A stretch of 64,000 bases of DNA from Alphaproteobacteria bacterium (GCA_033763575.1 JANRKF010000013.1:17396-81395), one strand, 5' to 3'; positions 43,160 to 62,938 are shown, counted from the first letter of the stretch. Translations and numbers: made by a program. Notes: a model not told the origin generated them from the letters alone.

Positions 43160-43735
43160 ATGACCTACAAAAAGATTAGCGCTTCCATGCGGGAGCGCAA
43201 ACGAATGGCGTTTGCCTTACAGGTAAAATCCATGGGCGCCGACGGCCGTTTCGCGGGCTATGCCAGCGTGTTCGACATCGTTGATAACCAGAAGGATATC
43301 ATCATGAAGGGCGCGTTCGCAGGAGCGCTTAAAAACGGCCCCGGCGCGATCAAGCTGCTATGGCAACATCAGCAGGACGAGCCGATTGGCATCTTCGACC
43401 ATATTTTCGAGGACGCGTTCGGGCTGTATGTCGAGGGGCGGTTGCTGCTCGATGTGCAACAGGCGAGGGAGGCGCACGCGCTGCTCAAGGCGGGTGCGGT
43501 TTCGGGCCTCTCCATTGGCTATTCGCCGGTGCGCTACCGTATCGACGGGGATACCGGGGTACGGTATCTGGCGGCGGTCGATCTCTTTGAGATCAGCCTC
43601 GTCACCTTTCCCGCCAACGACGCCGCGAAAGTGACGGTGGTGAAGGGCACTCCCTCCCCCCTCAATGGGGGAGGAACAGAGATGATCGCCCTGCAAGACG
43701 CTCTCGACAAGGCCATCTTGACGTTGCGTTTTTAA
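43160..43735 (+). CDS. HK97-family prohead protease (RcGTA g4 homologue)
   Basis: FAGYASVFDIVDNQKDIIMKGAF...LLWQHQQDEPIG...GLSIGY...EISLVTFPAN. GAGGAA RBS. Confidence 0.9.
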   Translation: MTYKKISASMRERKRMAFALQVKSMGADGRFAGYASVFDIVDNQKDIIMKGAFAGALKNGPGAIKLLWQHQQDEPIGIFDHIFEDAFGLYVEGRLLLDVQQAREAHALLKAGAVSGLSIGYSPVRYRIDGDTGVRYLAAVDLFEISLVTFPANDAAKVTVVKGTPSPLNGGGTEMIALQDALDKAILTLRF

Positions 43736-44448: not shown

Positions 44449-45645
44449 ATGACTATTTCTGAAATCACTGAACGCGTCTCGCACCTGGGACATGCATGGG
44501 AAGAATTCAAGCATGTGAACGATGCGCGCCTGCGTGAGATCGAGACCAAAGGCTCTGCCGACGGCCTCTATAACGAGCACCTGAACAATATCAGCCGTGC
44601 GCTCGACAACTACAAATCGCGTCTCGACACCATCGAGACGGCCTATGCGCGTCCGGAACTGGGCGCCGAGCTGGAAACCAAACATACCCATGCCGGGTAT
44701 AGCGAATACAGCAAGGCCTTCCGCAATTACCTGCGTAAAGGCATGGATGCGGGTTTAGAGCAGCTTTCGACCAAGACACTTTCGGTCGGTTCCGATCCCG
44801 ATGGCGGTTACCTGGTGACGCCGACCATGAGCGGCAAGATCGTGAAATCGGTGTATGAAACTTCGCCGATGCGCCAGGTCGCTTCGGTGGAAACCATCAC
44901 CTCCGATTCGCTGGAACTGATCGACGACCACGACCAGGCCTCGGCGGGGTGGACTTCGGAAACCGGCGCCATTTCGGAAACCAATACGCCGCAAATCGCC
45001 AAGCGCAACATCCCGACCCATGAACTTTATGCACAGCCGAAGGCGACGCAGAAGCTGGTAGACGATGCCGCGATCGATATCGAAGCATGGCTTGCCGATA
45101 AAATTTCCGACATCTTCGCCCGCAAGGAAAATACGTCCTTCATCAGCGGCAACGGTTCGGGCCAGCCACGCGGTATCCTCACCTACGCGGCGGGCACCGA
45201 CTGGAACCAGATCGAGCAGATCGATTCCGGCACCAGCGGATCGGTCACTGCCGACGGCCTCATCAAAGTATTTTATGCGCTGAAAGATGCCTATACCCGC
45301 AACGCCAGCTTCATGATGAACCGGGCGACCGTGCAGGCGGTGCGTCTCCTGAAAGAGGCGACCACCAACCAATATCTGTGGCAGCCGGGCCTTGCGGCCG
45401 GTGCGCCGGATACCCTCATGGGGGTACCGGTGATGATGGCGTCCGACATGCCGACGGCGGCGGCGGATTCGCTTTCGGTCGCGGTGGGTGATTTCAAGGC
45501 GGCGTACCAGATTGTTGATCGCCGTGGCATCAGCATCCTGCGCGATCCGTTCACAGAAAAACCGTTCGTGAAATTCTACGCCACCAAGCGCGTCGGCGGC
45601 GATGTCATCAATTTTGAAGCCATCAAGCTGTTGAAGCTTGCTTAA
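44449..45645 (+). CDS. HK97-family major capsid protein (RcGTA g5 homologue)
   Basis: N-terminal delta-like coiled region, then GSDPDGGYLV, SGNGSGQPRGIL, QYLWQPGL..G.PDTLMGVPV and GISILRDPFT. Confidence 0.92.
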   Translation: MTISEITERVSHLGHAWEEFKHVNDARLREIETKGSADGLYNEHLNNISRALDNYKSRLDTIETAYARPELGAELETKHTHAGYSEYSKAFRNYLRKGMDAGLEQLSTKTLSVGSDPDGGYLVTPTMSGKIVKSVYETSPMRQVASVETITSDSLELIDDHDQASAGWTSETGAISETNTPQIAKRNIPTHELYAQPKATQKLVDDAAIDIEAWLADKISDIFARKENTSFISGNGSGQPRGILTYAAGTDWNQIEQIDSGTSGSVTADGLIKVFYALKDAYTRNASFMMNRATVQAVRLLKEATTNQYLWQPGLAAGAPDTLMGVPVMMASDMPTAAADSLSVAVGDFKAAYQIVDRRGISILRDPFTEKPFVKFYATKRVGGDVINFEAIKLLKLA

Positions 45646-46272: not shown

Positions 46273-47046
46273 ATGACATGTCTTATGTCGACCAAAACAA
46301 ATATTGAATGGACGGAAATGACGTGGAATCCGACAACGGGTTGCACGAAAATTTCACCTGGATGTAAATATTGTTATGCGGAAGTAATGGCGAACAGGCT
46401 GCAGGCGATGGGCGCTGCGGGATACGAACAAGGCTTTAAACTACAACTCCATCCCGATCGCCTGAAACAGCCGCTTGCGCGTAAAAAATCGACCACCTAT
46501 TTTGTCAATTCCATGAGCGATTTATTTCATGAAGAGATTCCGTTTGCTTATCTCGATCAGGTATTTGCCATCATTCGTCAAACGCCACAGCATACGTATC
46601 AAATTCTGACAAAACGCCCGGAACACATGGAAAATTATTTTAAAACGCGCATGGTGCCTGTCAACGCATGGCTTGGTGTGTCAGTAGAAGACAGAAAATA
46701 TGGGCTTCCCCGTATTGACATTTTACGACGTATCAATGCCTCCACACGCTTTCTTTCTATTGAACCGTTGCTGGAAGATCTTGGAGAATTTAATCTTCAA
46801 GGCATTCAATGGGTGATTGTTGGCGGAGAATCGGGTGCAAAAGCGCGTCCGATGCAAGAAGCATGGATAGGGCATATTGCCAACCAATGTTCTAAAAATG
46901 GCGCTGCCTTTTTCTTCAAACAATGGGGCGCGTGGGGTGCGGATGGAGTTAAGCGCTCCAAATCCGCTAATGGCCGTGAATTTCAAGGAAGAATCTGGGC
47001 TGCGACTCCTTCAGATACGCAAATGGATCTGGCGCTAAAATATTAA
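46273..47046 (+). CDS. DUF5131 / phage Gp37-Gp68 family three-Cys-motif protein
   Basis: IEWTEMTWNPTTGCTKISPGCKYCYAE...YFVNSMSDLFHE...LTKRPE...SIEPLL...WVIVGGESG is the PF07505 pattern as I recall it. The start may be 46285. Confidence 0.75.
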   Translation: MTCLMSTKTNIEWTEMTWNPTTGCTKISPGCKYCYAEVMANRLQAMGAAGYEQGFKLQLHPDRLKQPLARKKSTTYFVNSMSDLFHEEIPFAYLDQVFAIIRQTPQHTYQILTKRPEHMENYFKTRMVPVNAWLGVSVEDRKYGLPRIDILRRINASTRFLSIEPLLEDLGEFNLQGIQWVIVGGESGAKARPMQEAWIGHIANQCSKNGAAFFFKQWGAWGADGVKRSKSANGREFQGRIWAATPSDTQMDLALKY

Positions 47047-47099
47047 TCTTAACAATTTTTTAGTTATTAGAAAATCGAGAAAGGGACAGGAATGATGCC

Positions 47100-48092
47100 G
47101 TGCCGCACCATTTTTATGACTGGTCTAATCCACGCAAACCACCGCTTTTACAACTCCATAGCATTGCAAAGCACGAGGTAATAAAAACATATCTTGAACA
47201 CCATATTGAACGGTTGACCGCCCATTCTCGAATGGCACGCCTTAGGCTTACTATCGTTGATGGATTTGCTGGTGGCGGCATATATCGCCATGCGGAAACA
47301 GATAAATTATGTGCCGGTTCTCCTTTTATTTTTCTTGAGACCGTCCATCGAATGGAAAGAAAGATACGCAAAAAACGCACCAAAAAATTTTGCATTGATG
47401 CAGCGTATTATTTTATTGATAGAGACAATGATGCTCTATCTTTTTTACGCTCGCAATTGCATAAAAAAGGATACGGCGACCTGATTGGTGAACGCGTTTT
47501 CTTACTGCACGGATCTTTTTCCAATCTTTTCGCAGGACTAATGGAAATTGTTCGCTCACGCGGTGGGCGCGCATTCTTTTTATTGGATCAATATGGTTAT
47601 AAGGATATACCTTTGTCGCTTATTAAACAAATATTCACCCGCCATCCAAGCGCTGAGGTGTTGTTTACATTTGCGGCAGATGCGCTGGTCAATTATATGG
47701 CTCATCGCAAGCAATATTACAAATGCGTACACAACATTGATCCCAGCGGTCGTTTATTGCCTCGTGAAGACATAGTAAAACTAAATAGACTTAAAAACCG
47801 TTCGGCATATAAAACAAAAATAACCGAATGGCGTTTAATGACTAAACATAAGTTACTGTGTCGCCTTATTCGGCTTTGTGGTGTGCGCTATTGCGTTCCA
47901 TATTTTATCGTTTCCCCAAAAAGCAATCGTGCATATTGGTTTTTACATTTTTCAAATCATTTGAAATCTCGAAATCAAATGCTCAAGTTGTGTGGTCGCA
48001 ACCACAATGTTGTAGTGCGACATAAAATGTCTGGATTCAATATGTTTGGATATGCCCCTCGTAAACACTCAGCCACAGAAATCGATTATTAG
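47100..48092 (+). CDS. three-Cys-motif partner protein TcmP-like
   Basis: GTG start. LLQLHSIAKHEVIKTYLEHHI...IVDGFAGGGIY fits my recollection of TIGR04474, which is defined by adjacency to PF07505 genes. Confidence 0.6.
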   Translation: MPHHFYDWSNPRKPPLLQLHSIAKHEVIKTYLEHHIERLTAHSRMARLRLTIVDGFAGGGIYRHAETDKLCAGSPFIFLETVHRMERKIRKKRTKKFCIDAAYYFIDRDNDALSFLRSQLHKKGYGDLIGERVFLLHGSFSNLFAGLMEIVRSRGGRAFFLLDQYGYKDIPLSLIKQIFTRHPSAEVLFTFAADALVNYMAHRKQYYKCVHNIDPSGRLLPREDIVKLNRLKNRSAYKTKITEWRLMTKHKLLCRLIRLCGVRYCVPYFIVSPKSNRAYWFLHFSNHLKSRNQMLKLCGRNHNVVVRHKMSGFNMFGYAPRKHSATEIDY

Positions 48093-49820: not shown

Positions 49821-50366
49821 ATGACCCATTTCCGCCATCGCGGGCTGGTGCGGGTGACGCCCCCCACCGCCGAGCCGCTAACCCTTCAGGAAACAAAGGA
49901 ATTCTTGCGGATTCCGCATAATGACGACGATTCCCGCATCAACGATATGATCGTCACCGCCCGTTCGCTGGCCGAGCAATGGCTCAGGCGGTCACTCATC
50001 ACCCAGGGCTGGAAGGTATCTTTCGAGGACGCCATTACCGGCACGATCCGCCTGCCGATGGGTCCGGTCCAGTCCATCACTTCGGTGGTGACGACGACCG
50101 TGGACGGGGTTCCGCTCACCATCCCCACCACCGCCTACCTGCTCTCGGTGACACAGGATGCGATCGTGGTGGACAACATCATCAGCGGCCATCGCATCGA
50201 CATCACCTATGTCGCAGGGTACGGCTCCGGCAGCCAGCTTCCGAAACCGATCAAGCTCGGCATGCTGCAACATATCGCCGCCATGCTCGACAGCGAAATG
50301 ACGCTGGCGCCGATTCCCGACAGCGTGCTGCCGTTTTACACGCCGTTTCGGGAGCTGGCCCTATGA
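49821..50366 (+). CDS. head-tail connector protein, gp6-like (RcGTA g6 homologue)
   Basis: EPLTLQETKEFLRIPHNDDDSRINDMIVTARSLAEQWLRRSLITQGW is the family signature. Confidence 0.85.
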   Translation: MTHFRHRGLVRVTPPTAEPLTLQETKEFLRIPHNDDDSRINDMIVTARSLAEQWLRRSLITQGWKVSFEDAITGTIRLPMGPVQSITSVVTTTVDGVPLTIPTTAYLLSVTQDAIVVDNIISGHRIDITYVAGYGSGSQLPKPIKLGMLQHIAAMLDSEMTLAPIPDSVLPFYTPFRELAL

Positions 50367-50692
50367 AAATGTTCAATGCCAGTCTGCGCCACAAGGTGTT
50401 CCTTGAGCGCAAAATCCAAACCACAGATGGGGCGGGGGGGTATACGGACGCATGGGAAACGATAGCGACATTATGGGCGGGAATCAGCCGCCTGCGCGGC
50501 GGCGAGAAATTTTCCGCCGGGCAACTCTCCGCCAGTTCCACTCATGTGTTCCGCCTGCGTTACAACCACAACATTACCACCGACATGCGTTTTTCCTATG
50601 ACGAGCGGCTGTTCAATATCCGTGCGCTTCGCAATGTCGATGAGAGGAAACGGATACTCGATGTTTACGCCGAGGAGGGCGTGGCCATATAA
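50363..50692 (+). CDS. head-tail adaptor / head closure protein, SPP1 gp16-like (RcGTA g7 homologue)
   Basis: LRHKVFLERKIQTTDGAGGYTDAWETIATLWAGI...THVFRLRY. ATGA overlap with g6. Confidence 0.85.
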   Translation: MKMFNASLRHKVFLERKIQTTDGAGGYTDAWETIATLWAGISRLRGGEKFSAGQLSASSTHVFRLRYNHNITTDMRFSYDERLFNIRALRNVDERKRILDVYAEEGVAI

Positions 50693-51120
50693 TTGACGCC
50701 CATCGCAGGCAAGCGGCCAGGCGACAGGTTGAGCGCCGTCATCAGCAGATGCACATGGGCGCGGAATTTGGCGTGCCACTCGCGTTCGGTGCGGATGCCG
50801 ATGGTACTGCAGATTTCGTCGAGGAAATACACCGAGCTATCCATGGAGAAAACCTGCAGCGCCTCGCCGAGTAATTCCTTGTCGGGTTTCGCGGCTTCCT
50901 TGGAAAGCAGGAAAGTGCCATGCACCAGGTCGTGAACCGCTTTCTGCCACGGTTTATAGCCCTCGGCATACGGGTCGCCGGCTTCTTCGATCACATGGTC
51001 CAGATGCTGCTCGATGCGTATCAGCGTGACCTGATACACCTCGACAAAGGTCTGCGCCATGCGCGTGGCCTGCAACGCGTTTTCATCGCCGTTTCCGGCT
51101 ATGCCATCAACCGTTTCCAT
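50665..51120 (-). CDS. hypothetical protein (antisense to the GTA operon)
   Basis: 151-aa ORF. Its 3' end overlaps the g7 3' end by 28 nt. No motif recognised. Confidence 0.4.
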   Translation of the reverse strand: METVDGIAGNGDENALQATRMAQTFVEVYQVTLIRIEQHLDHVIEEAGDPYAEGYKPWQKAVHDLVHGTFLLSKEAAKPDKELLGEALQVFSMDSSVYFLDEICSTIGIRTEREWHAKFRAHVHLLMTALNLSPGRLPAMGVNYMATPSSA

Positions 51121-51153
51121 GCAAACACCTTAACATTTTATTGTGACAGTTTT

Positions 51154-51558
51154 ATGACATATTTCAGCCAATTTTCACTTCAGCAAAGTTTATACCAGCA
51201 GCTCACCGGGGATACGACCCTGATGGCACTGGTTTCGGGGATTTTCGACCATGTGCCGCAAGGCACGGCCTATCCCTTTGTAACCATAGGAGAAGCCGCC
51301 ATCCGCGATTTTTCCAATGCCGAAAAACAGGGCACCGAGCAGCAGGTCACCCTGCGTATTTACAGCCGCGAGGCGGGCCGCAAGCAGGCTTCCGCCATCA
51401 TGGAGCGCATCGTCACGCTGCTTAATAGCGCTGACCTCACGGTGAGCGGGCAAACGCTGCGCTCGCTGCGTTTTTTATCCAGCAATATCGTGTTGCAGGA
51501 TGACGGGCTGACCTATCGCGGCACCCTTATTTTCCGGGCGCTCCTGAACGAGGCCTGA
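51154..51558 (+). CDS. DUF3168 tail-completion protein (RcGTA g8 homologue)
   Basis: LQQSLYQQLTGDTTLMALVSGIFDHVPQGTAYPFVTIGE...VTLRIYSR is typical of DUF3168. Confidence 0.8.
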   Translation: MTYFSQFSLQQSLYQQLTGDTTLMALVSGIFDHVPQGTAYPFVTIGEAAIRDFSNAEKQGTEQQVTLRIYSREAGRKQASAIMERIVTLLNSADLTVSGQTLRSLRFLSSNIVLQDDGLTYRGTLIFRALLNEA

Positions 51559-51559
51559 A

Positions 51560-52144
51560 TTAACGAGGTAGAAATTCCCCGGCGATGCCGTCGATGAAGG
51601 TCTGGTAGCGGGTTTGCAGCGGGTCGATGATGGCGGCGTCGCAGGTGCCGCTAGCATATAATTCCTTATACGAGCCCTGCGCCGAAGTCAGAATATCGTA
51701 TTGCAACCGGCCGGGCGCGTTCACCGAGGCCATTTCCTGCGCCAGCGCCGAGATGATGATATGGTAATCGGCGGGTTGTATTTTCGCGCATTGCCGCAGC
51801 ACGAAATAGGTCACAAGAATATCTTCGTAACGTTTTTTGAGCGTGTCGATAGCGGCCTGGGTATCGCCTTGCCCTTGAGGCGCGGGGTCGAGCACCGATT
51901 GCAGCTCGCTTTGCGGCCCGACGGGCGGCAGGGCGGGCGGGGGATCGCACTCGATTTTTTCGGCGGTTTTCGCCTTCAGCGTATCGCGTTCATTGGCCAG
52001 CATGGCATTTTCAGCCTGCAGGGCGGTGATCCGGCCTGCAAGCTCGTGGTTTTGCTCTTTGGTGCGCAGCATGCTGAAAAGCGCGCCGATGATGATCGCC
52101 GCCACGCATACCGCCACCAGCCCGTTCAGCTTTTTGCCCAGCAT
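51560..52144 (-). CDS. hypothetical membrane-anchored coiled-coil protein
   Basis: N-terminal TM helix (LVAVCVAAIIIGALF), then a heptad-like segment (ELAGRITALQAENAMLANERDTLKAK). It is antisense to the GTA operon. Confidence 0.45.
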   Translation of the reverse strand: MLGKKLNGLVAVCVAAIIIGALFSMLRTKEQNHELAGRITALQAENAMLANERDTLKAKTAEKIECDPPPALPPVGPQSELQSVLDPAPQGQGDTQAAIDTLKKRYEDILVTYFVLRQCAKIQPADYHIIISALAQEMASVNAPGRLQYDILTSAQGSYKELYASGTCDAAIIDPLQTRYQTFIDGIAGEFLPR

Positions 52145-52185
52145 TTTTCCATTTTCCCTTTGAGGGGGTTTTTTGAAGGAGTTTT

Positions 52186-52533
52186 ATGACAGACAATGTA
52201 ACATTTTCCAATGATTTACAAAATACGCAGGCCATCGACGCCGCGCTGGCCGATATCGAGCAGGCAGTGGTGCGTTTCGAGGGTATTCTTTCCCGTCATG
52301 CGCGATCTTTGAATGCTATATCTGGTATATCTGGCCGGAGAACATCTACAGGCAGACTCATTGCCGGGAGCCTTGCCCGGCTGGGCGGGCTGCTTTCCGG
52401 GCGGGATTTGCCGGATTCCCGCACCGTCTTCAACCCAACCCTAGAGAAAACCAATCGTTTTCCCGCTTCGAGCGGACAGTTCATGGCCGACCTGGCCAGC
52501 GCCATCCAGCGAATTGGCGGCAGAAACCTTTAA
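52186..52533 (+). CDS. hypothetical protein; possibly a degenerate GTA tape-measure-like (g11) remnant
   Basis: 115 aa. Only position and an Ala/Gly/Leu-rich helical character (RLIAGSLARLGGLLSG) suggest this. It lacks the family's C-terminal GPELF-type motif. Confidence 0.3.
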   Translation: MTDNVTFSNDLQNTQAIDAALADIEQAVVRFEGILSRHARSLNAISGISGRRTSTGRLIAGSLARLGGLLSGRDLPDSRTVFNPTLEKTNRFPASSGQFMADLASAIQRIGGRNL

Positions 52534-52646: not shown

Positions 52647-54791
52647 ATGGACAATTACGGTAATCATAACGCCCCACCCGGCATGACTCTCGACCAGGCG
52701 AAAAAGCTGGGGGAGCAGACCTACGAAAAAAATCAGAAAGAATTAGCCAAAGGCCTGCAATTGACCGCCGATGAGGACGGGAAATATAACGTCTTCGGCG
52801 TGGAAGTTCCTAAAACGCTGGCGCCCGCCATCAACGTCGCGATCGATACGTTGATTACCCCGTTCAGCGGCATGGTCGCCGATGTCGTCTACCAGCACAC
52901 CAGAAAAATCGCCGCCAATAATTTCAAGGCGACGGCGGAAAGTGCGCACGGCACTGCGCTCACCGCCGAACTGATTGCGCGCTGGGGGATCATCCTCGCC
53001 AACCCGATCGGGAAATTCGTAAGCGCCAATGCCAATTACGGGCAGGAAATATTCAAGCTGCACGGCGAATTGAAATCGGTGTGCGAGGCCACGAGCGCGG
53101 ACTACCAGCACAACAAGGTGGTAAGTGGCGCGCTGCATGAAGCCTCCGAGCGCTATACCGAGCGGCTGACACTGATACTCCCCAGCCTGATGGCGCTGAT
53201 CCCGCAGGTGGTGTGGGGGATGCAGATGCAGCACAACACCGCCGCCAAGCGTGCGGCGGAATTCGGCGGCGGCAATGCGGTCAGCTCGGCGGTGGACGAT
53301 GTCGTGAAAAAACGCCTGGAGAGCGTGACCAGCAAAATCAACCTCCAGCTCGAACAGGAAAAGCTGCACGAGGAACAATATAAAGTTTTCAAAAAAACCC
53401 GGGCGAAGGACGTCTATAAACTGCTCGACCAGCAAAACGCCAATCCCAATGCCCCGGAGGGCTATGGTGGTTACAACAAGGACTACCAGACCAGTGACCA
53501 ACGCGAACGGAAACTGCGCGAATGGTTCGATAGGAACGTATGGCAGGAAGCGCTGAACCACATCAAGGAAGAGGAAAAAGCGCTCAGGACCAAAACAGCT
53601 AAAGGCAGTGACGGGCATTCCCCAGATAAACCGACCGACAACATGCTCTTAAACCAGCTCTTCTTTGCCGCCCCGGCCTTGTCGGCGGCGGGGCAGGGGA
53701 TCCAGAGCAGCATGGCCGAGGCGCAGAAAAAGCAGCGTGGGCAGGCGTCATCCTACAAGCTGATCCTTGGCCTCAAAGAACATATGCAGGGCAAGCAGAG
53801 TGTCGAGTGGGTGCAGGAACAGGTCATCGAAATCTTCCAGAAAGTCGAGGAAGAAATCGGCGGCGGGAATACGCGCTTCTCCGGCGGGCTGCTTGAGCGC
53901 CTCAAGGATTCGATCAGGCCGGTTGCCGAACATATCGCATCGGGCAAGCTCGATCCGCTGTCGCTGGTGAAGCTCGCCGGCGAGGATATGATTATCGAGC
54001 ACAAGCACAAAACCAAGACATTCCGCAGCGAAGCATCGATCCAGAAAACCCTGGACGATATGTGCTGCACGCAGTTGATCGCCGGCAGCGAAACCTCGGA
54101 GAAAGAATTCCTTGGCCGCTTTGCCGCCGACCACGCCCATGTGAAAGAAGCGATAAAGAAAACGCTGGCGGACATGCCCGCAGGGCCGGAGAAAGGCTTC
54201 ATGGCATCGATTCTTCCGGCGGAAGTGCTCAAAGAAGCGGGAATTTCGAAAGAGGAAATCCGCGATTTGCGCAAGAGTGCGCGGGAGCATCTCCATGATC
54301 AGGTTGCCGCCGCCATCCTCCACATCGCCGCGATGGATGAGGAAATGCTCAAGGAGCATGGCGTCTCGACCAAGGAAATCGAGCAGATTAAAAAACTCAA
54401 CGACAGCATCCTGCAGGGCAACCGGGAAGCGCTGGAGCAGCTGGTCGATAGCAAAAATGAAATCATCACGGTGGTCGCCGCTGAGGGCCTGAACGAACAA
54501 CTGGCCGGTAACGCGATGGTGTGGACAGAGCGTGTCGGCGAAGCGAAAAAACTCGAGTCTATTATCGAGGCGGCGAAACAGAAAAAAGAAGAAAGAACCG
54601 CGCCCCGCGATGAGCATGGGAGCCAACATGCGGACGAGCATGGGCAGGAGATGCCGCCGGAGGAACACGAAAAACCGATGCTCGGCAAGCACGATGAGCA
54701 CGGCCACGCGCATAAGCATAAACATCCGAAATCGCCGCTCGATCACGCCCGGCGTGACGCGGGCGCGTCACATTTTGAGCAGGGGGCCTAG
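52647..54791 (+). CDS. large orphan protein A (714 aa), helical, His-rich C-terminus
   Basis: Long ORF with host-like composition. The C-terminus is DEHGSQHADEHGQEMPPEEHEKPMLGKHDEHGHAHKHKHP. No catalytic motif recognised. Confidence 0.6.
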   Translation: MDNYGNHNAPPGMTLDQAKKLGEQTYEKNQKELAKGLQLTADEDGKYNVFGVEVPKTLAPAINVAIDTLITPFSGMVADVVYQHTRKIAANNFKATAESAHGTALTAELIARWGIILANPIGKFVSANANYGQEIFKLHGELKSVCEATSADYQHNKVVSGALHEASERYTERLTLILPSLMALIPQVVWGMQMQHNTAAKRAAEFGGGNAVSSAVDDVVKKRLESVTSKINLQLEQEKLHEEQYKVFKKTRAKDVYKLLDQQNANPNAPEGYGGYNKDYQTSDQRERKLREWFDRNVWQEALNHIKEEEKALRTKTAKGSDGHSPDKPTDNMLLNQLFFAAPALSAAGQGIQSSMAEAQKKQRGQASSYKLILGLKEHMQGKQSVEWVQEQVIEIFQKVEEEIGGGNTRFSGGLLERLKDSIRPVAEHIASGKLDPLSLVKLAGEDMIIEHKHKTKTFRSEASIQKTLDDMCCTQLIAGSETSEKEFLGRFAADHAHVKEAIKKTLADMPAGPEKGFMASILPAEVLKEAGISKEEIRDLRKSAREHLHDQVAAAILHIAAMDEEMLKEHGVSTKEIEQIKKLNDSILQGNREALEQLVDSKNEIITVVAAEGLNEQLAGNAMVWTERVGEAKKLESIIEAAKQKKEERTAPRDEHGSQHADEHGQEMPPEEHEKPMLGKHDEHGHAHKHKHPKSPLDHARRDAGASHFEQGA

Positions 54792-54793
54792 TC

Positions 54794-56011
54794 ATGGAAC
54801 CATCTGCGCACGATCAGAAGAAAAAAAATCAATATCAGGAGATCGCCCATCCGGACGACATCGCCATACAAAGCAGCAACACCATTCCGCTGCGCCCGCT
54901 CGACCAGTTCCGCTCGTCCTACTGGTCGGGTGCGGTAGCCGCGCTGGGACTTCGTTACCTGCCGAAAATATTTTCCCGCAATTTCTTCAAAACACAGGCA
55001 GATGTCTCCTACAATCAGCAACATGCTTATTCCGCGGTGACCGGCAGCATCCTGATGGGGATGACGGGTTTCTACGCCAACAAAACCTATAGCGACATCA
55101 AGGCCATCTTCTCGGAAGCGGTCGGCTGGGAGATGGGGAAAGACCCCGAAAATATAGGGTTCATGGATTTGTGGAACAGTAAAAACAGCATGGTGCAGCA
55201 GACCATGCGTAATTATGTATGGTTCAATTTGCGCCGTGTTGGCGTGAATATGGCGTTTTTCCTGCCTTTCATGCCCGGTTTCAAGCAGGGCGTCGAGGGG
55301 CTGGAAAAGGGCTTCAGCACCAAAATCAATGACGGCGAACTGGGCGTGGATTTAGGGGTGAGCGCCAATGCCGCCTATCTGCTCAGCGACGTGCTCAACC
55401 GCAAGCAGACACCGTTCGAGGCGCTGCAATCGCTCATCAACGCCAAGATCAACCACCTTGAGCATTTCTCCGACCGCTTTGTCGGCACCGACCTCCTCAA
55501 CATCTATGAGCGCCACGCCGTCCACGATAAAAACGAATCCTTCCTGTCGCTGCGCGGCACGGAGAAATGGGATGAAGCGATGGAGCTGTTCGACCGGATG
55601 GCCGAGCTGCTGAATGAAAAATACCGCAACGAAGTGCCGCACGAAGAAGCGCGTTTCGGCTTCTCGAAATTCATCCACCTGCTCGGCACGCAGAAAATCG
55701 ACCCCGATCACATCAAGCTCTCGCGCATCTACGTCGAGATCGCCAACCAATATGGCGTGAAGGAGGTGGATATCGCCGCCGAGCAGATCGCCCAGGGAAA
55801 ATCACTGGAAAAGGTGATGGCCCGCTATCCGCTGGTAGCGCAGGCGGCGGTGACGGCGGCGGAAATCGCGGAAAAAGAAAACCCTGCCGAGGCGCGCACC
55901 CCGGCCCATGCGAAAATTATAGAGAAAAAACAGCCCGTTGAAAGCCATGCCGAGCGCTATGCCGCGCAAAGCCAGGAAGCGCACGCGCAGCCATCTACGC
56001 TCTCTATTTGA
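54794..56011 (+). CDS. orphan protein B (405 aa), membrane-associated
   Basis: Starts 2 nt after A. It has hydrophobic segments (GSILMGMTGFY, VGVNMAFFLPFMPGF). Confidence 0.6.
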   Translation: MEPSAHDQKKKNQYQEIAHPDDIAIQSSNTIPLRPLDQFRSSYWSGAVAALGLRYLPKIFSRNFFKTQADVSYNQQHAYSAVTGSILMGMTGFYANKTYSDIKAIFSEAVGWEMGKDPENIGFMDLWNSKNSMVQQTMRNYVWFNLRRVGVNMAFFLPFMPGFKQGVEGLEKGFSTKINDGELGVDLGVSANAAYLLSDVLNRKQTPFEALQSLINAKINHLEHFSDRFVGTDLLNIYERHAVHDKNESFLSLRGTEKWDEAMELFDRMAELLNEKYRNEVPHEEARFGFSKFIHLLGTQKIDPDHIKLSRIYVEIANQYGVKEVDIAAEQIAQGKSLEKVMARYPLVAQAAVTAAEIAEKENPAEARTPAHAKIIEKKQPVESHAERYAAQSQEAHAQPSTLSI

Positions 56012-56084
56012 GGCTGTCACATAATCTTAATACAAAACCCATGTAACCCCTTGCCCGGATAGGCTATATTTAAAGGGTGGAGAA

Positions 56085-57629
56085 GTGTGGATTATGGTAG
56101 GATCACCAAAGATAAGACCGATGAAGCCTGTAAATCGATTGGATTCGATCGGGGAGACGGTGGCCGAGGCGCGCCCGGATACGCTTGTCCGCAAAGCTGG
56201 GCAGGCTTCGGAAAAAGCCCAGGACTGGATGGAAAAATACCTGTATCGTCCGGGCCAGAAAAAAGCGCCCGCACCTGCAATCGAAACGCCACCCGCACCG
56301 GCGGCAAAATCCAAATCATCGTCATACTCATCGGGATATTCACGCAGCGACGAATTTGCCCCCGTTGCATCCCCGGCAAAACCGGCAGGCGAAGGAGAGA
56401 TCGATCCGGCTTATCTGGTGGCGGGTGCGGCGGCGGCGGGTCTGGGCGCGGCGGCATTGCGCCCGCGCTCGGATGAAAAACATAAACCCACGGAGCTGGA
56501 AGCGCTCGGCAACACCGTCATCGGCGGGTTGGATGCGGCGGCGGGCACACTCGGCAGCGTCACCGGCATGACCGGCATGGTGCTGGGCCTCGGCGGGCAG
56601 ATGGTTGTTCCGACATTGGCGGGTGGCCTGGGGCTGGTGGGAGCGAAGGGCGCATCAAGAACCATCATGAAGCCGCTGGATTACCTGAACGAAACCACCG
56701 TGGAAGCCTTCGCGGCCAAACATATTCCCACCCATATCAGCGCGAATGTCAGCAAGGCCTCGAATACGCTGGCCGGGGTGGCGTCCGTGCCGCTGGGCAC
56801 GATGTCGAAACTGCCGCTGCTCGGTTCGCTCAAAGCGGAAAATATCAAATCGCTGCCCACGCAAATCAAGCAATCCTCGCTGATGCATGCAACGCTCAGC
56901 AGCTCCTTCATCGCCATGGGCGGGCTGCAGATGTATGGCGTCGCCCGCGAATTCTCCGGCATGGTACAGGCGATGGAAGAGCTGGAACACGATCTCACCG
57001 GCAAGAAAGTGTCGGCGGCGGGCGTGCTGCTTGGCAATGTCTCCAAGCCGGTGGCGGCCCTTCGCACGCAGTTGCTGCAAACCGACGGCACGCACATGCT
57101 GGCGGCGATGGCCAATCTCGGTATCAACATCGCCATGGCCTTTTCCAACCGCCTGGGGTTCATGTCGAGTATGTTGATGTTCCAGGCACCGGAACTCATC
57201 AACACCGTGGCGGAAGGCGTCTTCGGGCATTCGCCGCTGCCTGTCTATTCCGGCCTGCGCGCCGCCTACAACGCCGGGCAGGAGATTCCGGCGGAAGCGT
57301 ACGCCGAATTCCTGCTGCTTTCCAGCAAGGAGCTGCGCGATCATGGTTCCCGCGGCAAACGCATGGCTTCGGAGATCGCCAAGGAATATGCCGGGCAGCA
57401 TGTATCTCCGGCGGAAGTGCTGCGGAAAGTCTATAACGGCGAGATGAAAGCGCGGATGGAGGCGATCGTCGACAGCCAGCCTCAAGTTTCGCACGTCGAT
57501 CGCCTGAAAAATAAAGCGCGCACGGTGGCGGCGGAAAAATTTCCGCAGCCGGTGGGCAACTTCACCAGCCGCCTGCATGAACAGGCGCAGCTGGCGGAGA
57601 TGACGCCGCCTTCGCCATCACTCAATTAA
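56085..57629 (+). CDS. orphan protein C (514 aa) with glycine-zipper hydrophobic core
   Basis: Non-ATG track start (an ATG at 56121 is also possible). It contains GGLDAAAGTLGSVTGMTGMVLGLGGQMVVPTLAGGLGLVGAKG. Confidence 0.6.
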   Translation: MWIMVGSPKIRPMKPVNRLDSIGETVAEARPDTLVRKAGQASEKAQDWMEKYLYRPGQKKAPAPAIETPPAPAAKSKSSSYSSGYSRSDEFAPVASPAKPAGEGEIDPAYLVAGAAAAGLGAAALRPRSDEKHKPTELEALGNTVIGGLDAAAGTLGSVTGMTGMVLGLGGQMVVPTLAGGLGLVGAKGASRTIMKPLDYLNETTVEAFAAKHIPTHISANVSKASNTLAGVASVPLGTMSKLPLLGSLKAENIKSLPTQIKQSSLMHATLSSSFIAMGGLQMYGVAREFSGMVQAMEELEHDLTGKKVSAAGVLLGNVSKPVAALRTQLLQTDGTHMLAAMANLGINIAMAFSNRLGFMSSMLMFQAPELINTVAEGVFGHSPLPVYSGLRAAYNAGQEIPAEAYAEFLLLSSKELRDHGSRGKRMASEIAKEYAGQHVSPAEVLRKVYNGEMKARMEAIVDSQPQVSHVDRLKNKARTVAAEKFPQPVGNFTSRLHEQAQLAEMTPPSPSLN

Positions 57630-57644
57630 CGGGAAGACCGGATT

Positions 57645-58583
57645 GTGAACGATAAAAAACAAGAGATGCAGGATAGGGGACTGACCGGGCTTGGCACCGA
57701 TAACGAGGTGCTGGCCGCGCAGCTTGCCACCAATACGCTGGGCCATATGGCCGCGCCCGCCGGACTTGCGGTGGATCTCTATGCGGCGGATGTCGAGCTG
57801 CACCGGAATATCCAGGCGGCCACCAGCATGATGGGCGAGGATACGCGGACGCTGAAAGCCGGAAGCCCCGCCTTCCGCAAATATATCAAAGAGGAATTGC
57901 CGGAAGTCTATGGCGACCGCGCCATGGGTTTTGTCGCGGCCATCACCGGCGGTGCGGTAGCGCTTGGCCTCGCCGGTATGGTCTTCGGCCTGCCCGGTGG
58001 ATTCCTGGGGATGCTGGCCGGACTCACCATTGGCGCGGTCGGTTCGATCGGCGGGAATTATATCAAGAACCAGTTTTTTCCCAGCGACTATAATACATTC
58101 CTCGATTTTGCCGCCAACCTGCAAAATCTCGGACAGCAGAAACAAATGACGCCGGAAACGGCGTTCGTGGCGCTGGTGATGAATATGCCGGATGAGCGTT
58201 CACGAAAAGACGTGATGGCGACATTGCCGAAACGCCTGCGCGTCAAAAATGAAAAAGACCTGATCCGCCTGCTGGCCAGCGACGAAGGGCGGGAGGCGCT
58301 GCGCATGGCCATGGTGGAGAACGACGCGGCCCTGCGGGCGGGTGTGGGCGCGCTCAGCACCTCGCCGCAGGTCACCATTTCCGAACAGTTCGCACAGCTC
58401 GTCAACCAGCAGCAGGTCGCCGGGGTGGATTTGCTCAATGGCGAAAAAACCGGGCATATCGGCATGCTGATCGCCAACCACGAGACGATGCAATTCCAGC
58501 AATCGCAGGAACCGCAGGACATGGCGCAAGCCAATCCGAATACCCATCTTCCCACGCCCAAAGCAAACCAGCTCGGCGTTTAA
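57645..58583 (+). CDS. orphan protein D (312 aa) with glycine-zipper TM hairpin
   Basis: GTG start 15 nt after C. It contains GFVAAITGGAVALGLAGMVFGLPGGFLGMLAGLTIGAVGSIGG. Confidence 0.6.
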   Translation: MNDKKQEMQDRGLTGLGTDNEVLAAQLATNTLGHMAAPAGLAVDLYAADVELHRNIQAATSMMGEDTRTLKAGSPAFRKYIKEELPEVYGDRAMGFVAAITGGAVALGLAGMVFGLPGGFLGMLAGLTIGAVGSIGGNYIKNQFFPSDYNTFLDFAANLQNLGQQKQMTPETAFVALVMNMPDERSRKDVMATLPKRLRVKNEKDLIRLLASDEGREALRMAMVENDAALRAGVGALSTSPQVTISEQFAQLVNQQQVAGVDLLNGEKTGHIGMLIANHETMQFQQSQEPQDMAQANPNTHLPTPKANQLGV

Positions 58584-58652: not shown

Positions 58653-59252
58653 ATGGCGTTTATCGAAACACGCTTTCCTACGGACATATCTTTTGGTTCC
58701 GCAGGCGGGCCGGAATATTCCACCGACATCATCATTACCCAGGGGGGGTATGAGCAGCGCAACATCAACTGGGCAGCGGCGCGGGCGCGTTACAACGTCG
58801 CCTACGGCGTCCGCACGCAGGAGCAGCTCGATGCGCTGATCGCCTTCTTCCGCGCCCGCAAAGGCCGGGCCGACGGTTTCCGCTTCAAGGACTGGACGGA
58901 TTACCAGGCGACCGGGCAGCTGATCGGCACGGGCGACGGCAGCACCACCCAGTTCCAGCTGGTGAAAAACTATACGAGCGGCAGCATCACCGATAGCCGC
59001 ACCGTTACCAAGCCGGTCTCGGGCAGCGCGTCCATATACCTCGCCGGGGTATTGCAGACAACCGGCTATTCGCTTTCCACCACCACCGGCATCGTCACCT
59101 TCAGCAGCGCCCCCGCAGGCGGCGTCGCCATTACCGCCACCTTCGATTTCGACGTGCCGGTGCGCTTCGATACCGACCGGCTCTCCGCCTCGCTCGACAG
59201 CTACGGCCTTTCCAGCATCAGCGACATTCCGCTGGTGGAAGTGAGGGTGTGA
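58653..59252 (+). CDS. DUF2460 distal-tail protein (RcGTA g12 homologue)
   Basis: MAFIETRFPTDISFGSAGGPEYSTDIIITQGGYEQRNINW...GFRFKDWTDY is the typical N-terminus of the family. Confidence 0.88.
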   Translation: MAFIETRFPTDISFGSAGGPEYSTDIIITQGGYEQRNINWAAARARYNVAYGVRTQEQLDALIAFFRARKGRADGFRFKDWTDYQATGQLIGTGDGSTTQFQLVKNYTSGSITDSRTVTKPVSGSASIYLAGVLQTTGYSLSTTTGIVTFSSAPAGGVAITATFDFDVPVRFDTDRLSASLDSYGLSSISDIPLVEVRV

Positions 59253-59391
59253 TACATCAAACCATTGAATATGATAATATAAATAGATATATTTGGTTAA
59301 GATATATCTATTATTTAATATTTATAATGATTTTGCCATTGTAAGAAAATAGTTGTATTATATAAACATTACTGATAGTAGGAGTACCCTT

Positions 59392-59664
59392 ATGGCTACA
59401 AAGAATCCTAAGCAAGAAGCTGTCGATAGCAATTATGAGGCGTTTAAGCGCCTTTTACCTGCGATTATCGGTGTTCACGCTAATCAATACGCACTCATGC
59501 GGAATGGAGATGTAGTAGAGTATTTTGACACGGCAAAAGATGCTTTCTCAGCGGGAAGTAAAATTTTTGAAGATGGCTTGTTTTCCGTTCAGAAGGTGAC
59601 TGATTCAATCTCTGATCTGGGTTATTATTCGCATGCCATGCCTAACTGGTGTACTCAACAATAG
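59392..59664 (+). CDS. small protein, DUF5678-like partner of the aspartic protease
   Basis: AGGAG RBS. HANQYALMRNGDVVEYFDTAKDAFSAG...FSVQKV resembles the small proteins I recall upstream of bacterial retropepsin-like genes. Confidence 0.45.
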   Translation: MATKNPKQEAVDSNYEAFKRLLPAIIGVHANQYALMRNGDVVEYFDTAKDAFSAGSKIFEDGLFSVQKVTDSISDLGYYSHAMPNWCTQQ

Positions 59665-60031
59665 TTTACAAGCCATTATCGATGTTGCAGTAGCTCCCAC
59701 TAGTGGACAGGCTCATGCGAAGCTGCAAAATTTCCGAGCGCTGATTGATACGGGAGCGAATCGTACTTGTATTACTGCGCATGTCGTTCAAGCATTATCA
59801 TTAAGTCCGATAGGTAAATTGCCGATGCGTTCTGCTAGCCATACCATTGACACCAATATTTATATGGTGGACTTGGGATTACCATTTGGCGGTATAATGC
59901 GCCTTGATAAAGGCAAGGAGGTGATGGAATGTTGTGATAATAGCGAATTTGAAATTATTATAGGCATGGACATTATTTCTCAGGGAACGTTGACCGTATC
60001 TCCTGATAATCGTTTTATTTTCTGCCTTTAA
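59633..60031 (+). CDS. retropepsin-like (clan AA) aspartic protease
   Basis: Catalytic ALIDTGANRTCI (D-T-G-A) and the flap/dimer motif IIIGMDIISQG. 132 aa and strongly AT-rich. Confidence 0.7.
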   Translation: MPCLTGVLNNSLQAIIDVAVAPTSGQAHAKLQNFRALIDTGANRTCITAHVVQALSLSPIGKLPMRSASHTIDTNIYMVDLGLPFGGIMRLDKGKEVMECCDNSEFEIIIGMDIISQGTLTVSPDNRFIFCL

Positions 60032-60233: not shown

Positions 60234-61100
60234 ATGAAAACCATCTCCAATGAACTCAGCCAGCATATCGCGGGTGAGGTGACGACGCTTGCCACCTGCT
60301 GGAAGCTCACCCGCCGCGATGCGACCGTCATGGGCTTCACCGACCACGACCGCGACATCGCCTATGAATCGCTTACCTACAAGGCCGCCACCGGGTTTTC
60401 GCCGAGTGCGGTGGCGAATTCGGCCAATCTGCAGGTCGATAACCTCGATGTCGAGGGCATGCTCGCGGCGGAGAGTATTTTAGAGGCCGATATACTGGCC
60501 GGGCTCTACGACTTCGCGGAAATCGAAATTTTCCAGATCAACACCGCCGATACCGCGCAGGGCATCCTCAAAATGCGGCGCGGCTGGCTCGGTGAAGTAT
60601 CGCTCACCCGCCAGCATTTCGTGGCCGAGGTGAGGGGGCTTTCGCAGTTGCTCTCGCAGGATATCGGCGAATATTTCTCGCCCTCCTGCCGCGCCGCGCT
60701 GGGCGATTCGCGCTGCAAGGTAAGCCTGGGCTCCCACACCGTGACCGGCACGGTCACCTCAGGCGCCTCGCGTCTCGGCTTCACCGATAGCTCGCGCAGC
60801 GAAACCAGCGCCATTTTCACCGGCGGGAAAATCACCTTCACCTCAGGGGCGAATGATGGCATTTCGATCGAGGTGAAGGAATATATTTACCGCGCTGGCA
60901 CCGGCGGCATCCTAAGCTTCGTGCTGCCGCTGCCCTACAGTCTCGCCGCCAGCGACAGCTATTCGCTCGTCAAGGGCTGCGACAAGACCATCGGCACCTG
61001 TTTTTTGCGCTTCAACAATGTGGCGAATTTCCGTGGCGAACCGCATGTTCCGGGCGTCGACCGCATGCTGGAGACGGCGGGCACACGCTCGGAATGGTAA
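60234..61100 (+). CDS. DUF2163 / BR0599-domain tail hub protein (RcGTA g13 homologue)
   Basis: LATCWKLTRRDATVMGFTDHDRDI...YKAATGFS...NLDVEG, then the C-terminal CDKT...C..RFNN..NFRGEPHVPG. Confidence 0.88.
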   Translation: MKTISNELSQHIAGEVTTLATCWKLTRRDATVMGFTDHDRDIAYESLTYKAATGFSPSAVANSANLQVDNLDVEGMLAAESILEADILAGLYDFAEIEIFQINTADTAQGILKMRRGWLGEVSLTRQHFVAEVRGLSQLLSQDIGEYFSPSCRAALGDSRCKVSLGSHTVTGTVTSGASRLGFTDSSRSETSAIFTGGKITFTSGANDGISIEVKEYIYRAGTGGILSFVLPLPYSLAASDSYSLVKGCDKTIGTCFLRFNNVANFRGEPHVPGVDRMLETAGTRSEW

Positions 61101-61138: not shown

Positions 61139-61321
61139 ATGCAGATCATGCGTAACTTTACCCATGGTATTTTCACGGTGCTACGGCTGACCGGCGCGCC
61201 GCTATTATACCGCTATCCCCACCGCAATTCAGGCGAAGCGTTGCGCGGCGACTGGCTCAAAATCGCCGGCGACATTGAAAGCGTGATGGGAAAACTGAAG
61301 GACGAACGCCATGGCGGATGA
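61139..61321 (+). CDS. small hypothetical protein
   Basis: 60-aa ORF whose end overlaps the DUF2335 start by 11 nt. Coding status is uncertain. Confidence 0.3.
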   Translation: MQIMRNFTHGIFTVLRLTGAPLLYRYPHRNSGEALRGDWLKIAGDIESVMGKLKDERHGG

Positions 61322-61802
61322 GCCGAATTACACCGACAAGCCCTATAAAACCGGCGGATACCGGGACCCGAAGGCGGCGGGCCGCGAGCGCGTGCAGAAC
61401 CGCACGGTCGAAATCCTGCCGCATCCGGAGGTGCTGGAGAGTTATAATTACGTGGTCGAGGGCTCGGCGAAAATGATCCTCGGCATGTTTGAAAACGAGC
61501 AGAAACACCGCCATGAGTGGGAGCTGCTGGCGTTGCAAATTCATAAATTCTCGTCGATGCTGGGGCAGACGCTGGGGTTCCTGATCGCGGTCGCGGTGTT
61601 CGTCTCCGCCACCTTCATCGGGATTTACGGCAACACCACCATCGCCGCTTTTATCTGGGTGTTCGGCATGTCGATCATCGTGATGGCGGGATTGGTATGG
61701 TCGTATGCAAAATCCATGGGGCAGCGCCCACTTTTCGCAAGGCCCGCCATGCGCACCCATTTCCGGCCGGAAAAAAATCAGGGAGAACCCGCGGCGGAGT
61801 GA
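61311..61802 (+). CDS. DUF2335 membrane protein
   Basis: LPHPEVLESYNYVVEGSAKMILGMFENEQKHRHEWE followed by two TM helices matches the DUF2335 pattern. Confidence 0.6.
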   Translation: MADEPNYTDKPYKTGGYRDPKAAGRERVQNRTVEILPHPEVLESYNYVVEGSAKMILGMFENEQKHRHEWELLALQIHKFSSMLGQTLGFLIAVAVFVSATFIGIYGNTTIAAFIWVFGMSIIVMAGLVWSYAKSMGQRPLFARPAMRTHFRPEKNQGEPAAE

Positions 61803-62455: not shown

Positions 62456-62938
62456 ATGTTAACCCAACAAAAACACATCATCGCCTGTGCGCGGAGCTAT
62501 ATCGGCACGCGCTTTTCCCATCAGGGCAGGCTCAAAAAAACCGGCAGCCACAAGGGCGGCATCGATTGCCTGGGGCTGCTGGTGTGCGTGGCGGCAGAGC
62601 TTGATCTACGTGGGAAAAACGGCAAGCCGTTCGCCGCGTTCGACGAGCGCGGCTATTCCCACCAGCCGGATACGGACGCATTGCGGCAGCGCTTTGAAAT
62701 GCTTCTCATACCGATACCCATCACGGGTATCAAACCCGCCGACATCGCGCTTTTCACCATCGACGGGGCGCCGCAGCATATGGGTATCCTTGCTTCACCA
62801 CCAACCAGCAACCATCAACGACCAACCAATCTGATCCACGCCTATGCCCCGGCACGCGCCGTGGTCGAACATACCCTCGACGGGTATTGGCAGGAAAAAA
62901 TGACGGCGGCGTTCCGCCTTCCACATATTCACCCCTAA
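62456..62938 (+). CDS. NlpC/P60-family peptidase (RcGTA g14 homologue)
   Basis: ARSYIGTRFSHQGR...GIDCLGLLV (catalytic Cys), then HMGIL (His) and IHAY. Confidence 0.85.
   Translation: MLTQQKHIIACARSYIGTRFSHQGRLKKTGSHKGGIDCLGLLVCVAAELDLRGKNGKPFAAFDERGYSHQPDTDALRQRFEMLLIPIPITGIKPADIALFTIDGAPQHMGILASPPTSNHQRPTNLIHAYAPARAVVEHTLDGYWQEKMTAAFRLPHIHP

Follow-up and report, generated by a model that had tools for sequence, protein, structure and literature searches.

A Conserved Gene Module between g11 and g12

The window analyzed here is a 64,000-nucleotide stretch of DNA from Alphaproteobacteria bacterium (GCA_033763575.1, JANRKF010000013.1:17396-81395). It contains a gene transfer agent (GTA) cluster of the RcGTA type, in which four consecutive open reading frames (ORF1 to ORF4) lie between a miniature tape-measure gene, g11, and the distal tail gene g12. 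The block is a lineage-specific module of three or four genes that is kept in a clade of uncultured Alphaproteobacteria labeled "Rickettsiales". The four proteins are most likely made with the particle and act at a membrane. The reading favored here, with low confidence, is that they are particle-associated proteins ejected for membrane penetration by a short-tailed or tube-less GTA, in analogy to the ejection proteins of podoviruses. The RcGTA-type cluster itself is already known, and the conserved accessory module and the miniature tape measure are the new elements. The features of the cluster are collected in Table 1.

Table 1. Genes of the block and of the surrounding GTA cluster, in window coordinates
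Feature	Position	Strand	Length (aa)	Description
Terminase	38552-40246			Pfam/PHROG matches
Portal	41189-42391			Pfam/PHROG matches
S78 prohead protease	43160-43735			Pfam/PHROG matches
Capsid (HK97-type)	44449-45645			Pfam/PHROG matches
g7	49979-50692			Pfam/PHROG matches
g8, tail completion/terminator protein	50920-51558	+		Upstream border; Pfam Tail_completion_gp17, E = 3.6e-26; PHROG tail terminator
Conserved reverse-strand gene	51560-52144	-	194	N-terminal hydrophobic anchor, coiled coil, conserved C-terminal domain
Mini tape measure (g11 equivalent)	52186-52533	+	115	Tape-measure C-terminal motif ...FPASSGQFMADLASAIQRIGGRNL; good ribosome-binding site, GAAGGAG
ORF1	52647-54791	+	714	N-terminal bundle of very long helices and compact helical C-terminal domain (predicted); disordered His-rich tail
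ORF2	54794-56011	+	405	Compact all-alpha (predicted)
ORF3	56085-57629	+	514	Gly/Ala-rich, moderately hydrophobic N-terminal third; conserved C-terminal half
ORF4	57645-58583	+	312	Hydrophobic stretch of ~40-45 residues; always directly upstream of g12
g12, distal tail protein (DUF2460)	58653-59252	+		Downstream border; Pfam DUF2460, E = 1.6e-76
g13, hub	60234-61100			Pfam/PHROG matches
g14-like	62456-62938			Pfam/PHROG matches

A preliminary description of this DNA had reported four forward-strand ORFs of 714, 405, 514, and 312 aa, separated by 2, 73, and 15 nt, co-directional with the GTA genes and host-like in composition. All of this was borne out. The genes for terminase, portal, protease, capsid, g7, and g8 lie upstream and those for g12, g13, and g14 downstream in the same direction. 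The GC fraction of the block is 0.57, similar to that of the rest of the window, whereas the inserts at 47-48 kb and 59-60 kb are AT-rich.

The relatives used for comparison were 163 related loci, which were examined by tblastn and clustering. The layout of the block is conserved in about 30 related alphaproteobacterial contigs from metagenome-assembled genomes (MAGs), which range from 37 to 64% GC, and in each of them it lies inside an RcGTA-type head-tail cluster. The gene order is g8, (g9, g10), mini-g11, ORF1, ORF2 (missing in some), ORF3, ORF4, and g12. Protein lengths among the syntenic loci are 560-990 aa for ORF1, 357-415 aa for ORF2, 365-626 aa for ORF3, and 306-385 aa for ORF4. The same order is repeated in three independently gene-called contigs (L161, L162, and L163); in L161 and L162, the block is followed by g13, DUF2335, g14, and g15, complete. 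The recurrence of the block in one slot in these loci upholds its proposed membership in the GTA cluster. All contexts examined placed the module within such a cluster. No homology to housekeeping proteins was found, and the block recurs in GTA loci of relatives, so that neither ground for refutation named in the preliminary description applies.

The four proteins had been called orphans, a label that no longer applies. An exhaustive HMMER search for ORF1 provided 185 homologous representative clusters, nearly all of them stand-alone proteins of 550-800 aa. For ORF2, 33 homologues of 362-406 aa were found, every one unannotated. Syntenic homologues number 20 for ORF3, including a divergent "ORF3b" group (HHalign, 96.5%), and 16 for ORF4, including an "ORF4b" group (HHalign, 93%). 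A search of an indexed protein database with ORF3 returned ORF3 itself as the sole match.

Within the module, ORF4 is possibly the most ancient gene. Among more distant relatives, g8 adjoins g12 in L084 and L037, and L034 has a compact 1.6-kb interval instead. In a distant MAG labeled "Azospirillaceae", a lone ORF4-family protein of 342 aa (L050:10659-11690, E = 8e-16) is encoded upstream of g12, in the absence of ORF1 to ORF3.

Selection and Gene Coupling

Ratios of nonsynonymous to synonymous substitution (dN/dS) were obtained from the closest pairs available and are approximate, since dS is saturated. They are 0.17-0.24 for ORF1, 0.05 for ORF2, 0.38 for ORF3, and 0.22 for ORF4, compared with 0.05-0.25 for g7 and g8 and 0.02 for the capsid. 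For all four block genes, dN is far below dS and the ratios are similar to those of g7 and g8. ORF1 to ORF4 are thus real genes under purifying selection. Decay to pseudogenes is ruled out by the low dN together with the lengths that are kept across 37-64% GC.

The junction between ORF1 and ORF2 measures -4 to +3 nt in most loci, which suggests that the two genes are translationally coupled. The ORF3-ORF4 junction is likewise tight, mostly -8 to +15 nt, and the gap between ORF2 and ORF3 varies from 73 to 190 nt among the loci. No terminator-like sites were found on the + strand between the genes of the block.

Location of the Tape Measure

The block had been described as lying exactly where a siphophage encodes its tape measure. 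This placement was not sustained. A single tape measure of ~805 aa is encoded in Rhodobacterales prophages whose distal tail protein is of the DUF2460 type (L133:7566-10001 and some 40 loci like it). Its last 25 residues are nearly invariant and read DAxSFRxSxxQ[IV]AxDxARAxxxxRRxL; a slightly wider form, with [DE] in place of the second D and [LM] in place of the final L, describes the extreme C-terminus of tape measures linked to such distal tail proteins. A hidden Markov model (HMM) constructed from the last 32 aa of these phage proteins was run on all 7,070 ORFs of 90 aa or more in the loci. It matches the exact C-terminus of the window ORF at 52186-52533 with E = 1e-3, and it matches homologous small ORFs in L081 (E = 5e-13), L083, L001, L002, L007, L024, L082, and others. 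None of ORF1 to ORF4 was matched. When the 15-member family of these small proteins was aligned with the phage tape measures using HHalign, a probability of 94.8% (E = 5e-8) was obtained, with the two families aligned end to end at their C-termini. The window ORF is therefore assigned, from its sequence, as a miniature g11. Its length is 92-154 aa within the clade. In relatives that retain g9 and g10 (Phage_TAC_11), the order is g9, g10, mini tape measure, ORF1 to ORF4, and g12, so that the miniature gene fills the slot beside the chaperone. With the motif at the C-terminus of the 115-aa ORF upstream, ORF1 to ORF4 lie between g11 and g12 rather than in the tape-measure position.

The suggestion that the block is a fragmented or expanded tape measure is not supported either, given this separate gene, the absence of profile similarity, and the compact models of ORF2 and of the C-terminal half of ORF1. 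HHalign comparison of the four families with the 41-member family of ~805-aa tape measures provided probabilities of 0.1-0.4%. No Pfam or NCBIfam tape-measure match was found in ORF1 to ORF4, and the one weak PHROG tape-measure match (E = 0.0055) falls on a Gly-rich low-complexity stretch of ORF3. Fragmentation of a long tape measure would leave the motif in the last ORF, beside g12; its upstream location argues against such an event.

The tape measure of these clusters is thus miniaturized rather than missing and can be found by its C-terminal motif. In practice, the 25-residue motif can be used to detect tape measures that have degenerated in GTA clusters. Two other candidates were set aside. 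The 228-aa ORF directly upstream of g12 in L034 (L034:14198-14881) was considered as a canonical g11 and was not used; it lacks the tape-measure motif, matches nothing in the PDB or Pfam, and is part of a compact g9-g10-like arrangement. L133 was considered as RcGTA itself and is actually a prophage of R. capsulatus whose tape measure has 811 aa; it served as the phage reference instead.

Absence of the Tube Gene in One Sub-Clade

In L083, the two ORFs that follow g8 are g9 (Phage_tail_2, E = 4e-30) and g10 (Phage_TAC_11, E = 3e-12). Both genes are retained in the sister loci L083, L161, and L022. No g9 was found in six-frame translations of the window, L001, L002, L007, L014, L028, and others (best E = 0.25). 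Pfam scans and HHalign comparison of small ORFs with the g10 family identified no g10 in the g8-g11 interval of the window. The sub-clade of the window, which includes L001, L002, L163, L007, L014, and L028, has neither gene in the cluster. It keeps the neck (g7 and g8), the mini tape measure, and the baseplate genes (g12 to g14), with no tube gene in the cluster. The tail is therefore expected to be very short or tube-less, unless g9 is encoded elsewhere in the genome.

The co-directional cluster is interrupted between g8 and the mini tape measure by the conserved reverse-strand gene, which lies 41 nt from the start of the latter. This gene provided full-length tblastn matches in 13 loci (E from 1e-54 to 1e-23), and the + frame only partial ones. 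It is present in 34 loci, and in L161 and L163 gene calling assigned it to the minus strand. The + strand ORF at 51701-52189 was considered as a divergent g9 and rejected as a shadow of the minus-strand gene (HHalign against g9, 0.4%).

Predicted Structures and Similarity Searches

The AlphaFold2 model of ORF1, calculated from 70 sequences, has a predicted local distance difference test (pLDDT) score of 82.4 and a predicted template modeling (pTM) score of 0.67. Its N-terminal part is a bundle whose helices reach 54 residues in length; a compact helical C-terminal domain follows at residues ~369-651 and is the conserved core. The model of ORF2 (33 sequences; pLDDT 80.8, pTM 0.76) is compact and all-alpha. 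When the models were examined for rod-like shape, ORF2 and the C-terminal domain of ORF1 were compact, and the N-terminal half of ORF1 contained 50-residue helices. The helical character proposed earlier for the four proteins is thus reproduced in the models of ORF1 and ORF2. Foldseek provided no structural neighbor for ORF1 (best PDB match, E = 1.3; best BFVD match, E = 0.14; TM-score at most 0.13) or for ORF2 against the PDB (best E = 1.4; TM-score at most 0.24). Both proteins have confidently predicted folds with no known structural relatives in the PDB, nor, for ORF1, in BFVD.

ORF1 and ORF2 are soluble by hydropathy. Two hydrophobic hairpins had been proposed, one in ORF3 and one in ORF4. 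The segment in ORF4 is strong (residues 92-137, nt 57918-58055) and long enough for a two-helix hairpin. By hydropathy, all members of the ORF4 group proper carry such a segment, and the ORF4b members carry theirs closer to the N-terminus. In ORF3, the Gly/Ala-rich region was located at residues ~110-212 (nt ~56412-56720), and the copy in the window falls below the standard hydropathy threshold for a transmembrane segment; most ORF3 members have one hydrophobic segment. The conserved part of ORF3 spans residues ~250-500. The His-rich C-terminus was confirmed and belongs to ORF1 (residues ~659-714, nt ~54621-54788). The N-termini of all four proteins, as read from the sequences, are hydrophilic, with no signal peptides.

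No significant match to the curated families of Pfam, PHROGs, or NCBIfam was obtained for ORF1 to ORF4, and member-by-member Pfam scans identified no recurrent domain. This agrees with the initial impression that no enzymatic motif is recognizable in any of the four. The four family profiles provided nothing significant against PDB sequences; the sub-threshold matches were to apolipoproteins for ORF3 and to SlyB, ExbB, and AhlB for the hydrophobic stretch of ORF4. A tblastn search with ORF1 to ORF4 of 50,697 phage genomes returned no match. PADLOC models detected nothing at E ≤ 0.1 in ORF1 to ORF4 or in the neighboring small ORFs, and the reading as a defense system was rejected on this basis. 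In a comparison for possible paralogy, ORF3 and ORF4 were aligned by HHalign with a probability of 38.7% (E = 3e-4) in one comparison and 1% when merged families were used.

A C-terminal motif, S-[FH]-[AV]-x-R...R, was noticed by eye as possibly common to the four families and is not established; in a non-circular test, an HMM built from ORF1 C-termini alone had a best cross-family E of 0.31. Many members appear by eye to end in S-[FH]-[AV]-x-R-x-x-x-R followed by ~10 residues with a small or aliphatic end, a pattern that is unproven. In the window, such endings are located, for example, at 54740-54788, 55940-56008, and 57500-57560. ORF3 members additionally show SHV..L and VVG.HT..L by eye.

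Proposed Function in Membrane Penetration

The genes for the ejection proteins of T7 and P22 are located between the neck and tail-tip genes, the same relative position as that of the block. Podoviruses use three or four helical ejection proteins encoded at this position, and this parallel is one basis for the proposed function of ORF1 to ORF4. A second is that the insertion point is constant and adjoins the baseplate genes. A third is that the tail must be very short, so that a conduit would be needed from elsewhere. Finally, RcGTA itself ejects DNA into the periplasm only (PMC7296036). It relies on the competence machinery of the recipient. Further points in favor are the purifying selection on the block, its tightly joined gene pairs, the confident all-alpha models of ORF1 and ORF2, and the sharing of the block among relatives that lack the DUF5131 and aspartyl protease inserts of the window.

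In the proposed mechanism, ORF1 to ORF4, which lack signal peptides, would be synthesized in the cytoplasm alongside the proteins of the particle and then built into it. They would be ejected before the DNA when the particle contacts a target. The hydrophobic segments of ORF3 and ORF4 would insert into the target membrane, and the large, soluble, helical ORF1 and ORF2 would lengthen or stabilize the conduit. For a very short or tube-less tail, the set would take the place of the long tape measure of siphophages or of the podovirus ejection proteins (T7 gp14-16; P22 gp7/gp20/gp16). The particle could in this way gain an ability to cross membranes that RcGTA lacks.

The hydrophobic stretch that is kept in ORF4, and the segment in most ORF3 members, are consistent with this mechanism, although they are a generic feature and not diagnostic. 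Several observations weigh against it. ORF1 to ORF4 are known here from their genes, and their place in the particle is hypothetical. They have no sequence or fold similarity to tape-measure, ejection, internal virion, translocator, or pore-forming proteins in PHROGs, PDB profiles, Foldseek searches of PDB and BFVD, or the 50,697 phage genomes. With a summed length of 1,945 aa, they would not fit into the lumen of a short tail, so that either the small GTA head or the outside of the particle would have to carry them. ORF2 is dispensable in several lineages. The reverse-strand gene splits g8 from mini-g11, so transcription of the block may be independent of the head genes. Other conserved inserts in the cluster also encode membrane proteins (cytochrome b561, DUF2335, and the reverse-strand gene), which also fits a role at the membrane of the producer cell.

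An extended form of this proposal is rather unlikely. It holds that an RcGTA-type particle was turned in this clade into a short-tailed or tube-less device with its own four-protein "ejectosome" of unseen folds, which would cross the target membrane independently of recipient competence and might act on the membrane of a eukaryotic host.

Alternative Functions

The main alternative, possible though doubtful, is that ORF1 to ORF4 form a co-expressed, moron-like accessory module of membrane proteins that does not enter the virion and acts in the producer cell once the GTA cluster is switched on, for example in envelope remodeling or particle release, in membrane docking of assembly, or in protection of the producer. 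The cluster does hold other stable genes for nonstructural membrane proteins (cytochrome b561 in 23 loci, DUF2335 in 15, and the reverse-strand gene in 34). The lack of similarity to any virion protein family and the difficulty of fitting proteins of this total size in a small particle point in the same direction, and the hydrophobic stretch of ORF4 could be a simple membrane anchor. However, the block is in every case inserted exactly at the junction of the tape-measure and distal tail genes, with its last gene adjoining g12. The proteins have no signal peptides, and ORF1 and ORF2 are large, soluble, and devoid of enzymatic motifs. Lysis proteins, holins included, are as a rule much shorter than these, and the cluster has its lysozyme gene elsewhere, at the end.

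Delivery of ORF1 to ORF4 as protein cargo is unlikely. The particle or a tube-less derivative would in that case carry membrane-active toxins or effectors into a bacterial or eukaryotic cell, as extracellular contractile injection systems or tailocins do. The host lineage is labeled Rickettsiales-like, a group known mainly as intracellular symbionts. Non-DNA-transfer roles have been discussed for symbiont GTAs by George et al. (PMC9254644). Central helical segments of hydrophobic character, as found in alpha-pore-formers and translocators, occur in ORF4 and less strongly in ORF3, with the sub-threshold matches to AhlB, SlyB, and ExbB, and the block genes evolve faster than the head genes. Against delivery as cargo, no toxin, enzyme, or translocator domain and no fold match was found in the four proteins. 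With an intact and conserved terminase, portal, and capsid, the particle presumably still packages DNA. Effector genes usually vary from strain to strain, whereas ORF1 to ORF4 are orthologous across the clade.

It is distinctly improbable that the four proteins are assembly factors, that is, scaffolds or chaperones that build an unusual short or tube-less tail or baseplate and are later discarded. The canonical chaperone g10 is missing in the sub-clade of the window, and the block genes are tightly joined and located among tail-assembly genes; relatives that retain both g9 and g10 nevertheless carry the module, and a set of four large proteins, of which two bear hydrophobic segments, would be unusual for chaperones.

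A tape measure divided among the four ORFs, which would jointly be the ruler and channel of a long tail, is very improbable and largely refuted: the block adjoins g12, its proteins are helical with hydrophobic Gly-rich segments of a kind that also occurs in tape measures, and the PHROG match of ORF3 and the 50-residue helices of ORF1 would fit, but the conserved motif is held by the mini tape measure upstream and its HMM misses ORF1 to ORF4, all HHalign probabilities against the ~805-aa family are below 1%, ORF2 and the C-terminal domain of ORF1 are compact in the models, and the tube gene that a long ruler requires is missing in the sub-clade.

Comparison with Known Systems

In its gene families and in their order (terminase, portal, S78 protease, HK97-type capsid, g7, g8, g12, g13, and g14), the cluster of the window matches RcGTA. 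The g15 gene falls beyond the window and was found in the relatives L161 and L162 through its GTA_TIM and Rcc01698_C domains. The tape measure is already short in RcGTA, in which g11 is a hybrid of a tape measure and a tail needle (PMC7296036). In contrast to RcGTA, the window has the 6-kb four-gene module between g11 and g12, a g11 cut to ~115 aa, and, as in the rest of its sub-clade, no g9 or g10. It also has the additional conserved genes for cytochrome b561, the reverse-strand protein, and DUF2335, together with window-specific AT-rich inserts.

Siphophage tape measures of ~805 aa, such as that of L133, resemble the block in their position beside the distal tail gene, their helical character, and their hydrophobic Gly-rich segments, which are thought to be membrane-active. 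ORF1 to ORF4 differ in having no profile similarity to them and no C-terminal motif, and in being four separate proteins, two of which have compact predicted domains. The podovirus ejection proteins (T7 gp14-gp15-gp16; P22 gp7-gp20-gp16) are likewise sets of three or four mainly helical proteins, some with membrane-inserting segments. They have no detectable homology to ORF1 to ORF4 (no PHROG match; E of at least 0.14 for ORF1 in BFVD), and the block, known at the level of its genes, has no lytic transglycosylase domain.

The tripartite alpha-pore-forming toxins of the ClyA family (AhlABC and SmhABC) and secretion translocators offer a further parallel. These are operons of all-helical proteins of ~300-400 aa, and in AhlABC and SmhABC one or two members have a central hydrophobic helical hairpin and no signal peptide. 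The similarity does not extend to sequence or fold: the ORF4 profile provided E = 0.6 against AhlB, and the ORF2 model provided E > 1 and TM-scores of ~0.13 against SmhB, XaxB, and AhlC. The context of the block is a GTA cluster and not a toxin or secretion locus.

George et al. (2022, PMC9254644) described tail components as "missing or undetected" in Rickettsiales GTAs, proposed the recruitment of unrelated proteins, and noted unknown genes in the clusters. In symbionts of the Rickettsiales and Holosporaceae, GTA clusters are expressed, conserved, and apparently without some tail parts, and their role is an open question (PMC9254644). No description of the module was found in the full text of the literature searched, and one study of GTA co-evolution is silent on g11 and tape measures. 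The present comparison adds that one sub-clade has lost the tube and chaperone genes from the cluster, and ORF1 to ORF4 are specific candidates for the interaction of the particle with a membrane that may explain the missing tail parts of such particles. If they are membrane proteins of the producer cell instead, they are still new protein families tied to GTA expression. With a defined set of proteins, the role of symbiont GTAs becomes a more tractable question.

Other Genes of the Cluster and Related Loci

The assignment of the cluster to the RcGTA type follows from the presence, in order, of the genes for terminase, portal, protease, capsid, g7, g8, g12, g13, and g14. The capsid of the window is 75-87% identical to capsids of uncultured MAGs labeled Rickettsiales or Alphaproteobacteria.

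A cytochrome b561 gene (PF01292, E = 8e-33) is located on the + strand at 42483-43022, between the portal and prohead protease genes. With homologues in the 23 related loci noted above, it is a stable membrane-protein gene inside the head module. A predicted DUF2335 membrane protein is encoded at 61311-61802 (+), between g13 and g14, and is found at the same position in the 15 related loci with 57-78% identity.

The AT-rich insert at 46273-48092 contains a DUF5131 gene and a 330-aa ORF, and that at 59353-60031 an aspartyl protease gene and a 103-aa ORF. The first is common to just 3 related loci and the second to none, versus 33 for the block. In L006 to L008, the DUF5131 pair is placed upstream of the capsid. 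Both inserts look like recent mobile insertions.

Two related sequences are labeled as coming from outside the Alphaproteobacteria. The complete genome of Limnoglobus roseus (Planctomycetota, L032) has a chromosomal capsid gene whose product is 67% identical to that of the window, and homologues of g12 to g14 are found on a MAG contig binned as archaeal ("Archaeoglobales", L092). Horizontal transfer or binning contamination could account for these finds.

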